Part shown: one piece after another, positions 60,744 to 64,000 of the stretch | How the letters are laid out: each line of letters begins with the position of its first letter | Numbering within the stretch: position 1 is the first letter of the stretch | Virus record (IMG/VR): IMGVR_UViG_3300024999_000004 | Location: 29,596-93,595 of that record | Length of the DNA stretch: 64,000 nt | Reading direction: 5' to 3' (one strand) | Origin: a virus | Position numbers and translations under genes: made by a program | Notes under the pieces: model-generated | What the model was told of the DNA's origin: nothing | The model's database searches: none | The model's input: the letters and a program-made list of their open reading frames with translations, nothing else

Positions 60744-61337
60744 TCAGAAGATAACTGCCACGATGCTGATCGCGGAAAGAACGACAATTACAACGGCTTC
60801 CGCGCCCGCGACAAACTGCCAGAATTCAATGTCCCTTTTCAGTTTCTTGATAGAGCCTTCTAATTTTCGAAAGTTCGATGCCAAGGTCATGTATGATCTC
60901 TCCGTTTCTTCCAGTTTCTCCAAGAGATTCCGTGATTGCTCCATCGAGAGCTTCCCGGATTCTGTCGCTTTCCGCAAGTCCTCTTTCAAGAGCAGTAATT
61001 GTGTCTCTATCCTTTGCTTCTCTTTCACGGCTTCGTCGTAACTGTTCTTCAATTGAAGCAACTCTTCCCTCTGCGCGCTCAAGCTCTCTTTGTTTTGCGC
61101 CAAGAGTTTCAAGGAGTCCTGAAGCCATGACTCTTGCTTCTTGTTCGAGTCGTCCAAGCTCTGCAAGAGCGCGTTTACTTTCGCCCATCTCAGCAGTAAT
61201 TGCTCGGAGGTTTCTTGAGGATTGGATATATTTGTAGCCGAGGATGCTTCCTGCGGCCACAAGGGAGATAAGGATGACAACAACAAAAGCAGCATTACGG
61301 ATAGTGCCAAAGGAAGAAGCGTTCGGTTTTCCCACAT
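60744..61337 (-). CDS. Spanin-like protein A: signal peptide, coiled coil, C-terminal TM
   Basis: ATG at 61337; hydrophobic N- and C-termini; heptad core; no Cys. Confidence 0.7.
   Translation of the reverse strand: MWENRTLLPLALSVMLLLLLSSLSPLWPQEASSATNISNPQETSEQLLLRWAKVNALLQSLDDSNKKQESWLQDSLKLLAQNKESLSAQREELLQLKNSYDEAVKEKQRIETQLLLLKEDLRKATESGKLSMEQSRNLLEKLEETERSYMTLASNFRKLEGSIKKLKRDIEFWQFVAGAEAVVIVVLSAISIVAVIF
60826..61335 (-). CDS. Spanin-like protein B in the overlapping frame: N-terminal TM plus coiled coil
   Basis: GTG at 61335 shares the GGGAG SD; 169 codons open inside protein A. Confidence 0.6.
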   Translation of the reverse strand: MGKPNASSFGTIRNAAFVVVILISLVAAGSILGYKYIQSSRNLRAITAEMGESKRALAELGRLEQEARVMASGLLETLGAKQRELERAEGRVASIEEQLRRSREREAKDRDTITALERGLAESDRIREALDGAITESLGETGRNGEIIHDLGIELSKIRRLYQETEKGH

Positions 61338-61339
61338 TG

Positions 61340-61651
61340 TCACTCCCCGGGTTTGGTCTCAGGTTTCGTCTCAGGTTTCGTATCTTTGATGAACATACCC
61401 AGCTCTCCCCAAGTAGTGAAGAACAGGAGAACAAGGACTGCGGCAACAGGTACCACAAGGAGCCCGCCGAGGACAAGGGAGAGAATTACCCAGCTTTCGA
61501 CCGAGAGGAAATAGGAGAGTTTGCAGAGCACTCCAATTGAAGACCCTATGAAGTTGAGCGTGAACACGGCAGCAAGGACCCTGCGGATGGAAAAAGGAGT
61601 GTCGGAAAGACCTTCGCGCAGGCAAGTAGAGAAATCAAGCAACGCCTTCAT
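61340..61651 (-). CDS. Holin-like two-TM protein
   Basis: Two hydrophobic segments; charged C-terminus; lysis context. Confidence 0.6.
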   Translation of the reverse strand: MKALLDFSTCLREGLSDTPFSIRRVLAAVFTLNFIGSSIGVLCKLSYFLSVESWVILSLVLGGLLVVPVAAVLVLLFFTTWGELGMFIKDTKPETKPETKPGE

Positions 61652-61864
61652 CTAGTCCTCCCCAAAGAATTCCGCGTCGTCCATTTCATCGCTGAGTTCC
61701 ATCATTTCCCACCAAGGCATATCGTGACCCGGAAGCTCTACACACTTGCCTGTCGCAAGATCGTCAATAATGGATTCGAAGTGGTCGGGCATGGAGTTGG
61801 CAGGATCAAAGATCGCATATCTTCCTGACATAATCAGCCTCCCGTGAGCTGTCGCGCTATTCAA
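61652..61864 (-). CDS. Small acidic hypothetical protein
   Basis: ORF packed between lysis genes. Confidence 0.5.
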   Translation of the reverse strand: MNSATAHGRLIMSGRYAIFDPANSMPDHFESIIDDLATGKCVELPGHDMPWWEMMELSDEMDDAEFFGED

Positions 61865-61890: not shown

Positions 61891-62424
61891 TTACTCATCC
61901 TTGACCACAAGACTTATCTTTCTCCCTGCAGCAGTCTCCTGCTCCACAAGAGCAGCCAGCGCGAGCGCGTCTTTCTCCGACCTCAGCCGACCGCACCCTT
62001 GCGTGGTTTTGGAGTCCCTTGCAAAGTGGAATCCGTACCCGACATCTTTGACGATTCCGAAAGTCTCGGCTTCATAGCCTCCGGTTTTGTCGAGTTTCCA
62101 GATGGGTAGCATAAGCTCAGCATCGGTCTGGATGAAGGCAGGTCCAAGATACCCATATTCAGGATCAGTAGCCTCTCTTCGTCTGACTCCGAGGATTTCC
62201 CACTCCCTGCTACCGTCGGTGACAGGAAACGGACGGGGCATATAAGGATAGGCTCCGGGAATCGTGCGCACGACCTCACGGGGCTCGTGGAGCTTCCGTC
62301 TCCCGTTCAGCTCATTCCGGACATCCGAGGTACAATGAAAAACAAGAACCTGCGGAATTCCGTTGTAGACGGTTCCGGTATCCACTATCAACTCTTCCGT
62401 TTTTCTCAGGAATGTCCATTTCAT
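61891..62424 (-). CDS. L,D-transpeptidase (YkuD)-fold enzyme, candidate endolysin
   Basis: GYGFH......TTQGCGR (H...TxGC catalytic motif); GGAG SD before MKWTF. Confidence 0.6.
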   Translation of the reverse strand: MKWTFLRKTEELIVDTGTVYNGIPQVLVFHCTSDVRNELNGRRKLHEPREVVRTIPGAYPYMPRPFPVTDGSREWEILGVRRREATDPEYGYLGPAFIQTDAELMLPIWKLDKTGGYEAETFGIVKDVGYGFHFARDSKTTQGCGRLRSEKDALALAALVEQETAAGRKISLVVKDE

Positions 62425-62495
62425 TTTACGTAGGGCTCCTTTGTTCCTCAGATAGTCTGATATCAGGGCTTTTACTGAAAGAAAAGGCTGTAGGC

Positions 62496-63149
62496 TCACT
62501 CAAGGTACTCCCTGTACTTCGCATGATTGGCTGCGGAGGGAAGTGATAAGGGACCTATCCTAGCCGTCCTTCCTTCGGTAACGTAGCCAAATATTGCCGG
62601 AGGTACTTTCGTCACAATATCTCCTTGCACAGCAATATTATATACCTGCAGGAAACGTTTGTCAATTTCTCTGTTCAGTCTGAAGGGATTCCATACAACA
62701 CGCGGACTGCCGAAGGTAACAGTATTCGGGCGGATGCCTCTGAAGTACAGATCCTCGTGAGCAAGGGTAGCGAGAGCGCCGCCTTGGGAATACCCTGCAA
62801 CGATGGAGGGGGTGGAGCCCGAGAGGGCGGACATGATTTCGTCTTGTACGGACTTCCACAGGCGGAGGAAGCCCTCGTGGGCGTACCAGCGGGAACCTTT
62901 GTACGCGCGTACCGCCTTCGGGCAGAACAGGAAATTGTGTTTCCAGTCGGAATGGCTGGCGGAGCATTGGAAATAGAGTCCATTGTCGGAATCCAGACGC
63001 CACTGGACATCAAGAGGAGATGTCCTCCATGGCCCATGGGTGCATTTGTTGTAGAGATCGAGGTACGTTGCGCCCCATGTGGACGTTGTGGTTTTTGCGC
63101 TCACGGTGCTCACGGTGCTCACGGTGCTTACGGCGCTCACGGCGCTCAC
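62496..63149 (-). CDS. Class 3 lipase (alpha/beta hydrolase)
   Basis: AHEGF, GYSQGG nucleophile elbow, TFGSPR, DIVTKVP and C-terminal His. Confidence 0.88.
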   Translation of the reverse strand: MSAVSAVSTVSTVSTVSAKTTTSTWGATYLDLYNKCTHGPWRTSPLDVQWRLDSDNGLYFQCSASHSDWKHNFLFCPKAVRAYKGSRWYAHEGFLRLWKSVQDEIMSALSGSTPSIVAGYSQGGALATLAHEDLYFRGIRPNTVTFGSPRVVWNPFRLNREIDKRFLQVYNIAVQGDIVTKVPPAIFGYVTEGRTARIGPLSLPSAANHAKYREYLE

Positions 63150-63151
63150 GG
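63098..63151. repeat. 9-bp tandem repeat x6 at the lipase start (VSA/VST)
   Basis: GCTCACGG(T/C) units; most carry GTGA on the minus strand. Confidence 0.9.
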
Positions 63152-63556
63152 CGCGGCCTTGGGGAACAGATTCCCGACCAAAGCGAAAACCCCGCCTCCG
63201 ATGGCAGCGGCGAAGGCGAAAACAACGGCATCCCACATCTTCGATGGCCTGCTTTCTATGGTTCCGATGCGCTCCGACAATACACGGAACGCCTCTTTCA
63301 TCTCGTCCGTGTAGGTCTTCAGCATTTCCTTGATCTCGGCAAGAACCCTGTCGATGTTCTTGTCCCTCTCTTCGCGGGCGGAAAGGTCATTCTCTATGGC
63401 GCTGACTTGCCCTTCGAGACAGGAAACCGAAGTCTGAAGGGACTGAATGGCGGGGGGAAGATGCACAAGAACCAGTTCAAGTTCCCGTATCTTCTTGTCG
63501 AGGCTTTCCGCGAGTCTTTCGAGGGACTCGAATCGCATCAGCTCTGTTGCATCCAT
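63146..63556 (-). CDS. Coiled-coil protein with C-terminal TM (XhlA/holin-like)
   Basis: GGAGG SD; heptads then a hydrophobic C-terminus. Confidence 0.7.
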   Translation of the reverse strand: MDATELMRFESLERLAESLDKKIRELELVLVHLPPAIQSLQTSVSCLEGQVSAIENDLSAREERDKNIDRVLAEIKEMLKTYTDEMKEAFRVLSERIGTIESRPSKMWDAVVFAFAAAIGGGVFALVGNLFPKAAP

Positions 63557-63664: not shown

Positions 63665-64000
63665 CTATCCTGTCAGGGTCCGGGAGTAGGGTTTAGAGAG
63701 AGCGAAGGCGAAGCGGTAGAGGCGGAGGTCTTCGTCTGTGTCATCGATGAAAGCAACATCTGTGCCGTTCAGGGCAGCGAGGGCGGGGAAACCTCCGCCT
63801 ATATTAGTACTTCCAGCAGAGGCTAAGTGAGCCCACACGGTACCGTTCCAACGATACATGCGGAGATCATCGTTAGTCGCATCAATAAATGCCACATCTG
63901 TTCCGTTCATGGCCGCAAGAGCGGGGGCACCTATCCCTGGAATATTGAGTTCACTGCCCGCAACATAAGCCCACACGGTACCGTTCCAACGATACATGCG
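63665..64000 (-). CDS. C-terminal part of a repeat (beta-propeller-like) virion/tail protein
   Basis: About 46-aa repeats ALAA.NGTDVAFID.T..DLR.YRW.GT.W; 32-bp DNA repeat at 63831 and 63969. Confidence 0.65.
   Translation of the reverse strand, partial: RMYRWNGTVWAYVAGSELNIPGIGAPALAAMNGTDVAFIDATNDDLRMYRWNGTVWAHLASAGSTNIGGGFPALAALNGTDVAFIDDTDEDLRLYRFAFALSKPYSRTLTG

Follow-up and report, generated by a model that had tools for sequence, protein, structure and literature searches.

Locus layout and protein architecture

Virus record IMGVR_UViG_3300024999_000004 is 93.6 kb long, and its last 64 kb (64,000 nucleotides), termed the window, were analysed here. On the minus strand of the window, two genes designated A and B share nearly all of their DNA (Table 1). 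B lies entirely within A, in the +2 frame of A, which is equivalent to placing A in the +1 frame of B; its stop codon (60828-60826) falls just upstream of the sequence for the C-terminal transmembrane (TM) segment of A. Both frames open behind a single Shine-Dalgarno (SD) site. Read 5′ to 3′ on the minus strand, GGGGAG (61348-61343) is followed by TGA (61342-61340), the dinucleotide CA and the ATG of A (61337-61335). The TGA, situated between the SD site and the paired starts, is the stop codon of a 103-aa holin-like open reading frame (ORF).

The A protein consists of a signal-like N-terminus, a disordered Ser/Thr/Pro/Gln linker, a long helix broken at SGKLS and a C-terminal TM segment. AlphaFold2, run on a small alignment, places helices at residues 7-22, 44-126 and 132-196, with a low-confidence linker at 25-41 and a break at 127-131. 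Few columns are invariant across the A-like proteins, and S127 and the Leu residues on either side of it belong to them. Exported by its signal and held by its C-terminal TM segment, A should be a type I membrane protein, judging from these predicted segments. The B protein, also predicted from a small alignment, forms a single helix from residue 6 to 168 (pLDDT 84), with an N-terminal TM segment leading into the continuous helix. This is a type II topology resembling that of the inner-membrane subunit of spanins (i-spanin).

A first-pass annotation, made from the sequence without database searches, had described overlapping ATG and GTG starts behind one SD site, a 197-aa frame A with signal peptide, coiled coil and C-terminal anchor, and a 169-aa frame B with an N-terminal TM segment and coiled coil, open for 510 nt inside A. 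Every checked detail is accurate: the starts were read directly, and the ORFs, the Kyte-Doolittle (KD) hydropathy windows and the AlphaFold2 models agree with the two architectures. The same annotation saw no lipobox Cys in either protein, and A and B in fact contain no Cys at all.

Table 1 Features of the A/B locus and its neighbourhood in the window, with the paired genes of three records from other lineages (L009, L015 and L016).
Feature	Record	Position	Strand	Basis
Gene A	window	60744..61337	-	ORF, 197 aa
Gene B	window	60826..61335	-	ORF, 169 aa, 510 nt including stop
Shine-Dalgarno site GGGGAG	window	61343..61348	-	5 nt before ATG of A, 7 nt before GTG of B; read directly
Overlapping starts ATGTG	window	61333..61337	-	ATG of A 61337-61335, GTG of B 61335-61333, one G common
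A, hydrophobic signal-like segment (aa 6-24)	window	61266..61322	-	KD window 2.13; helix 7-22, then low-confidence linker 25-41
A, candidate hinge between two helices (aa 126-131, ESGKLS)	window	60945..60962	-	DSSP break at 127-131
A, C-terminal TM segment (aa 173-197)	window	60747..60821	-	KD 2.73 (aa 179-197); only part of A that B does not share
B, TM segment (aa 15-33)	window	61237..61293	-	KD window 2.59
Holin-like gene, 103 aa, multi-TM	window	61340..61651	-	weak Holin_9 match, E = 0.0087
Acidic ORF, 70 aa	window	61652-61864	-	ORF
Enzyme-like ORF, 202 aa, endolysin position	window	61891-62499	-	no Pfam or PHROG match
Class-3 lipase	window	62496-63236	-	Pfam Lipase_3, E = 6.5e-16
XhlA-like coiled coil with C-terminal TM segment, 136 aa	window	63146-63556	-	phrog_937 'hemolysin', E = 1.7e-7
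A-like gene	L009	2559-2975		phosphoesterase 58% identical
B-like gene	L009	2555-2899		phosphoesterase 58% identical
A-like gene	L015	2940-3398		phosphoesterase 38% identical
B-like gene	L015	2942-3322		phosphoesterase 38% identical
A-like gene	L016	3050-3484		phosphoesterase 36% identical
B-like gene	L016	2965-3420		phosphoesterase 36% identical

Recurrence of the pair in other phages

Other loci were located through the neighbouring phosphoesterase gene, which was aligned and then used to scan viral contigs. In three distant records, L009, L015 and L016, an A-like and a B-like gene occupy the same place after a holin-like gene, again with B in the +2 frame of A. The B-like frame ends 64-82 nt before the A-like stop, just before the hydrophobic C-terminus of A. 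The layout of the proteins is also retained: A-like products carry a signal, a helix and a C-terminal hydrophobic end, and B-like products an N-terminal TM segment and a helix, the TM segment being strong in all four lineages. Among close relatives, frame B is open in L001 and L002 (L003 and L004 are duplicates of these two; L005 and L006 are partial copies). Stop codons in frame B of homologues had been named in the first-pass annotation as the observation that would speak against the gene, and there are none in the close relatives or in the three distant lineages.

A is called as a protein in nine clusters at 86-100% identity, and its C-terminal TM segment is invariant in 10 proteins. An exhaustive profile search adds P0011 (204 aa, 38% identity, E = 1.8e-15) and P0012 (166 aa, 36% identity), distant homologues that each repeat the Met-Trp start, the signal-like segment, the helix and the C-terminal TM segment. 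A Gln follows the N-terminal hydrophobic segment of the A-like proteins in five lineages, in the contexts WPQ (window), FSQ (P0011), HGQ (P0012), SGQ (L015) and FSQ (L016), and in four A-like lineages small residues precede it. This resembles the habit of Bacteroidota signal peptides, in which Gln follows the cleavage site; the A-like genes nevertheless use clear SD sites.

The arrangement of the starts recurs with variations. In the window the context is GGGGAG-tgaca-ATGTGG, with the holin-like stop 2 nt upstream of the ATG; L001 has GGGGAG-cgata-ATGTGG, with the upstream stop overlapping the ATG (TAATG). L002 (AAGGAG-caaca-ATGTGG) and L015 (GGGAG-tagca-ATGTGG) have the holin-like stop 8-16 nt upstream of the paired starts. 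In L009 (AGGAGG-ggaa-GTGAGTG) B comes first and A starts 4 nt later, with the upstream TGA in between, and in L016 (GGGGGA-aata-ATGACATGG) A comes first and an internal ATG of B follows 5 nt later; many L016 relatives are called from this internal ATG, as 121-aa proteins. Because Trp has the single codon TGG, A-like proteins that start with Met-Trp (those of the window, P0011, P0012 and L015) carry a GTG in the +2 frame if they are ATG-started, and the DNA of P0011 and P0012 would likewise contain ATGTGG, provided that ATG is the start. Out-of-frame start pairs 2-5 nt apart behind one SD site are thus present in all four lineages, as the first-pass annotation had them in the window; the shared start is not universal, since in part of the L016 lineage B carries a zinc-ribbon extension and begins about 85 nt upstream. 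The holin-like gene of L002 (2714-2986) is unrelated to that of the window and shares 64% identity with its counterpart in the distant L015, yet the downstream A/B pair of L002 is still 84-86% identical, which places a mosaic junction between L002 and the window exactly at the paired starts.

The zinc-ribbon extension is a CxxC...CxxC motif at the N-terminus of B in L016 and several relatives. It lies outside A and starts from an ATGA at which the holin-like stop and the start of the pair meet. Such an extension is hard to explain for an untranslated frame, and as a Cys4 zinc ribbon it would imply a cytoplasmic N-terminus for the L016 B-like protein. A profile search for B-like proteins recovers 25 called proteins of 90-172 aa, mostly 114, 121, 126 and 148-151 aa. 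The L016-type set has 38 invariant positions at 53-91% identity, with mostly conservative changes, and the L015-type and L016-type proteins are homologous from the first Met (hhalign 88%, E = 2.8e-6). Five of 16 B-like proteins, all from lineages other than that of the window, match phrog_739 'Rz-like spanin' (best E = 1.1e-5), and phrog_89, 312 and 2975, also Rz-like, are matched by one member each. Rz-like spanin is the only recurring annotated match of the B-like proteins; A-like proteins have no Rz-like PHROG match at E <= 0.01.

One called protein joins the two frames. P0031 (JGI contig, L016 lineage, 172 aa) runs for about 107 aa as a B-like protein with zinc ribbon, TM segment and helix, and then continues as an A-like C-terminus with its TM segment. 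It is exactly the chimera expected if ribosomal frameshifting between the frames yielded a single product, with the N-terminus of B and the C-terminus of A or the reverse. The frame switch within the overlap is, however, most likely an indel or sequencing error, the simplest account of a protein from a single 1.45-kb contig, although it may be a natural fusion or frameshift product. In all lineages each frame has kept a start codon, an SD spacing and an N-terminal membrane signal of its own. No conserved slippery site was seen, though no search aimed at one was made. A frameshifted single product is barely credible as the explanation of the locus.

The scan of metagenome contigs yielded the window lineage only, and scans of genome contigs gave no relatives; viral scans with the L016-type B and holin-like alignments gave no further loci. 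Against GenBank phages, blastn with the cassette found no match and tblastn with the L016 B-like protein none, and tblastn with the phosphoesterase gave a lone 27% match to a Methanomicrobiales virus. By these searches, GenBank phages contain no relative.

Evidence for coding in both frames

The openness of frame B was assessed by holding the A protein fixed and shuffling its own synonymous codons, with 3000 shuffles per lineage; this null is conservative, because the codon usage of the gene already reflects any constraint. The +2 frame is open as far as observed in 7 (window), 230 (L009), 8 (L015) and 8 (L016) of the 3000 shuffles, giving a Fisher combined P of 2.1e-6 over the four lineages. 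With phage-wide codon usage, the window B is this open in 1 of 20000 shuffles. The reverse shuffle, in which the B protein is fixed and the A frame is scored, gives a combined P of 6.6e-4. The +1 frame is at chance in all four lineages, with 11-21 stops as expected (13 in the window against 11.5 expected). Of the antisense frames, none is consistently long across lineages, and a single P of 0.03 occurs, in the window. A 119-aa antisense ORF (60878-61237, plus strand), to which this P belongs, is open in the window, L001 and L002 and shows no excess in L009, L015 or L016; it was set aside as probably chance, since no antisense frame is consistently long.

Codon usage points the same way. T-ending codons of A would create stops in frame B before codons starting with AA, AG or GA. 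T occupies the third position in 16 of 170 A codons in the overlap, compared with 19.2% in phage genes (p = 3.6e-4), and in 6 of 27 codons of the unshared tail of A. Codon log-odds, computed leave-one-out on 27 control genes, are 0.173 +/- 0.080 for frame 0 and -0.218 +/- 0.041 (maximum -0.150) for +2 frames. In the overlap they are 0.115 for A, 0.026 for B and -0.363 for the +1 frame, which places B about 6 standard deviations above ordinary +2 frames.

Substitutions among close relatives show constraint on A. The third codon position of A holds the largest share of the variable sites in L001, L002, L005 and L006 (33 vs 15 and 19), and in the 82 nt of A outside B four of the five variable sites are third-position changes. 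A Poisson model was fitted to 44 substitutions, with four classes of sites according to whether a change is synonymous in A and in B. It places A under constraint (wA = 0.40, p = 0.009) and gives no significant constraint on B (wB = 0.68, p = 0.32), for which its power was too low. Nine of 11 isolated single changes are synonymous in A, and several of these changes give Lys/Glu or Thr/Ala replacements in B. Selection on the residues of B at short range is not demonstrated. Of the dual-frame conservation that the first-pass annotation had proposed to look for, the open frame is present in four lineages, and conservation of B's residues among close relatives is the part that did not emerge. The synonymous divergence of A (pS) is 0.085-0.13 in the overlap and 0.24-0.36 in the adjacent phosphoesterase gene, the direction that dual coding predicts, although phage mosaicism could also cause the lower value. 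Pairwise NG86 ratios (A 0.24-0.46, B 0.56-1.0, +1 frame 1.3-8.6) are confounded, because the second position of A is the third position of B.

The variation among close relatives is clustered in A codons 80, 87-88, 112-115, 147 and 161, with multi-nucleotide changes, and between these codons long stretches are identical at the DNA level. Codon 161 reads G, I, S or R. Codon 80 reads A, V, E or Q, and three of its variants leave the B residue unchanged (GGC, GGT and an inferred GGA), out of four.

A is a real gene. That it is the only one, with B an untranslated frame kept open by composition (a purine-rich coiled coil with few T-ending codons), would fit the substitution pattern, which is compatible with selection on A alone. 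It would also fit the choice of gene callers, which in the window lineage picked A in 9 clusters and B in 1, and the absence of a family match for the window B. Against composition of this kind, frame B stays open at the combined P given above, with each gene's own codon usage kept, over four lineages whose A proteins are barely alignable, and its codon usage stands far above that of ordinary +2 frames. In every lineage B has an N-terminal TM segment and a stop just before the TM segment of A, and in the L016 lineage it forms a well-conserved family with an extension that belongs to B only. The +1 frame shows no excess of openness in any lineage, and the one low antisense P is confined to the window. 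An A-only locus is consequently very unlikely. For B as a gene, the weight of the evidence says yes, though not all tests agree; its case is made by a frame that, with its signals and codon usage, is conserved over deep divergence. Taken together, the sequence patterns indicate that both frames are very probably real genes.

Lysis cassette and possible host

The gene order on the minus strand is XhlA-like gene, lipase, 202-aa ORF, 70-aa ORF, holin-like gene, A/B pair and metallophosphoesterase-like gene, and the cassette order is repeated in L009. This gene set is a lysis cassette, and A/B stand at the Rz/Rz1 position, at the end of the cassette after the holin-like gene. The listed lipase ORF has about 90 nt in common with the XhlA-like ORF, and its true start is therefore probably further downstream. 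A regular-expression search for lipoboxes in all frames found none in ORFs close to the cassette; the 93.6-kb genome as a whole gave two, both implausible, and thus no credible lipoprotein. Just upstream of the cassette, at the end of the record (63665-64000, minus strand), lie repeats of about 50 aa ('LRMYRWNGTVW...NGTDVAFID'), and the gene that contains them is likely a tail-fibre or receptor-binding protein. A different repeat (YLVERVQTAGVWG) occupies the equivalent place in L009 (1-855).

Several leads concern the host. A DUF261 protein stands at the endolysin position of L016 (2322-2720, E = 2e-19), and the endolysin-position genes of L015 (2211-2678) and L014 (2997-3479) have weaker DUF261 matches, below the Pfam cut-off. 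By tblastn against PLSDB plasmids, the L016 DUF261 protein hits 145 records, from Borrelia/Borreliella only and of about 25-31 kb; one inspected record is named cp32-1. DUF261 may be a phage lysis enzyme. In the single inspected Borrelia cp32 region with DUF261, no A/B-like pair is annotated beside it. The nearest Atlas cluster of A lists Spirochaetota, and Atlas look-alikes of A come from Spirochaetota and viruses and those of B from Verrucomicrobiota, as leads only. These phages may have a spirochaete host, a suggestion that stays at the level of leads.

A spanin-like model and its alternatives

A role of A and B in lysis is likely. The form of that role is more tentative: our reading is a non-lipoprotein, overlapped, spanin-like module, and we give envelope disruption in the manner of spanins a probability of roughly 0.45. 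The wider statement, that two real genes, overlapping almost completely and conserved as a pair, stand at the spanin position of a lysis cassette, has an even chance when the spanin-like proposal is included in it. The first-pass annotation had proposed a non-lipoprotein two-component spanin or fusogen of a new type, with its stoichiometry governed by the shared ribosome-binding site. This is borne out in part: both frames behave as genes, B lies inside A, and neither product is a lipoprotein, while a spanin or fusogen function, a heterodimer and a ratio governed by that site are putative.

In this model, ribosomes that load at the one SD site, or that terminate on the holin-like gene, would start either at the ATG of A or at the overlapping GTG of B. 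B would be the i-spanin-type partner, anchored in the inner membrane with its N-terminus inside and its C-terminus outside, and would extend a periplasmic helix of about 130 residues. A would be an unusual partner: behind a Sec-type signal it would carry a flexible tail rich in Ser, Thr, Pro and Gln, then a hinged coiled coil, and at its C-terminus an anchor in the membrane. It would take the place of the outer-membrane lipoprotein (o-spanin) without a lipid-attachment Cys. The two helical ectodomains would associate. Being encoded by the same DNA, they are equal in length, about 130 residues in the window (roughly 19 nm as a helix) and about 85-100 residues in the other lineages. In an antiparallel bundle, the N-terminal TM segment of B and the C-terminal TM segment of A would lie at one end, and the flexible tail of A and the C-terminus of B at the far end. 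Once the wall has been cut, this stalk would target the outer layer of the diderm host, possibly a spirochaete, perhaps together with the lipase of the cassette.

Besides the selection results for B, several points weigh against this reading. The topology should put both proteins in the inner membrane, and nothing visibly attaches to the outer membrane. Neither A nor B of the window has a periplasmic Cys. The window B has no PHROG or Pfam match at E <= 0.01 (the best is phrog_1009, of unknown function, E = 0.026) and no detectable homology to the B-like proteins of L015 and L016; the similarity of the window A to distant A-like proteins is likewise weak in comparison. With these sequence links weak or undetected, the connection across lineages rests on position and architecture. 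Two records with the phosphoesterase, L013 and L014, lack the pair at the corresponding place, and the hints of a spirochaete host are indirect.

The predicted inner-membrane anchoring of A and B would equally suit a pair of real genes that are not spanin equivalents and that assist or regulate the holin step (timing, an anti-holin or an XhlA-like accessory) or have another membrane role, such as superinfection exclusion. The start contexts suggest translational coupling between the holin-like gene and the pair, the cassette already holds an XhlA-like coiled coil with a C-terminal TM segment, and P0011 and the L015 A-like protein have faint matches to 'hemolysin' PHROG 1193 (E = 0.04-0.13). 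The lipase could, moreover, handle the outer layer alone. Such a role is nonetheless unlikely: the sole recurring annotated match of the B-like proteins is Rz-like spanin, periplasmic helices of about 13-20 nm suit the needs of a spanin and are atypical of anti-holins, and a position at the 3′ end of the cassette combined with an overlapped +1 gene architecture is a spanin hallmark (PMC6139136).

Beyond the spanin-like module itself, it is possible, though doubtful, that A and B represent a new class of envelope-breaching device, in which a type I and a type II inner-membrane coiled coil, encoded in two frames of one DNA stretch and made from one ribosome-binding site, act as a spanin-like complex or a fusogen without a lipoprotein, possibly in spirochaete hosts. 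If so, the shared DNA would force the two ectodomains to equal length and the paired starts would fix their ratio. The pair is a concrete, testable candidate for breaching the outer membrane without a lipoprotein, and uncultured phages of at least four deep lineages carry it. As a case of near-total dual coding on one strand, with starts 2-5 bases apart behind one SD site, it would also be useful for studies of start-site choice and overprinting. Pairs of this kind are probably under-annotated in viromes, since gene callers pick a single frame of the two.

Comparison with spanins and other lysis systems

No account of a pair like this turned up in literature searches. Two-component spanins, as defined by Kongari et al. 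2018 (PMC6139136), consist of an i-spanin and an o-spanin. The i-spanin has an N-terminal TM domain and a periplasmic, usually helical domain, and B has both (TM segment 15-33, helix 6-168). The o-spanin is a lipoprotein; A, with neither a lipobox nor a Cys, falls outside this definition, and B too is without Cys. In distant A-like proteins, Cys is not conserved and lies outside a lipobox context. A reading of A as a lipoprotein with a relaxed lipobox of the spirochaete type was rejected, as Cys is absent from the window lineage and P0012 and lies inside the hydrophobic core elsewhere. A lipobox-like FSGC in the L009 B-like protein is not conserved and was attributed to chance. Disulfide links have been proposed as general for two-component spanins (PMC6139136), and A and B differ in having no periplasmic Cys to form them; the lone periplasmic Cys of the L015 B-like protein is replaced in its relatives P0027 and P0032. 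The same paper raises the breach of the outer membrane as an open question and names type I proteins with a C-terminal TM domain as possible unrecognised spanin parts (PMC6139136).

With Rz/Rz1 of lambda, LysB/LysC of P2 and Rz/Rz1 of the Shewanella phage LambdaSo, A and B have in common that they are the last genes of the cassette, that they share DNA and that the partner lies in the +1 frame of the i-spanin gene. The arrangement is that of spanin genes in all four lineages, with A in the +1 frame of B within a lysis cluster after a holin-like gene, and it most resembles the 'overlapped' architecture (PMC6139136; LambdaSo), in that A reaches beyond B. The likeness extends to B, a type II protein of the inner membrane whose periplasmic domain is a long helix. 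B-like proteins of other lineages match Rz-like PHROGs. The differences lie mainly in A, which is not a lipoprotein, exceeds the i-spanin-like gene in length and contains all of it, and is itself a coiled coil ending in a TM segment. The nesting of Rz/Rz1 is thus reversed: the inner ORF, B, is the canonical i-spanin-like partner, and the outer ORF, A, is the odd one. In these known systems an internal SD site lies at about 0.4-0.5 of the i-spanin length, whereas the starts of A and B nearly coincide behind one SD site.

Unimolecular spanins (u-spanins) invite comparison with A by itself. A has the C-terminal TM domain of a u-spanin, but lipobox and Cys are absent. The periplasmic domains of u-spanins are mostly β-strand, whereas that of A is helical. 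Predicted secondary structure is reported to differ significantly between the unimolecular and the two-component class, and the u-spanin gp11 of T1 is like A in its N-terminal export signal, its C-terminal TM segment and its place in a lysis cassette (PMC6139136). It differs in that gp11 has a lipoprotein signal, while A has no lipobox and is obligatorily co-encoded with a second protein.

Two further systems resemble the pair in single respects. XhlA of the Bacillus prophage PBSX (PF10779; PHROG 937/1193 'hemolysin') is a short coiled coil with a C-terminal TM segment beside the holin; it is not dual-coded, and A, which carries a signal at its N-terminus, shows no significant match to XhlA. 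The S gene of lambda produces S105 and S107 from two starts a few bases apart, so that one ribosome-binding region gives two lysis proteins in a set ratio. Its starts are in the same frame and its products nearly identical, whereas the starts of A and B are in different frames and their sequences unrelated. Although not a member of the two-component spanins by definition, the A/B pair is like an overlapped two-component spanin in position, in architecture and in one of its partners.

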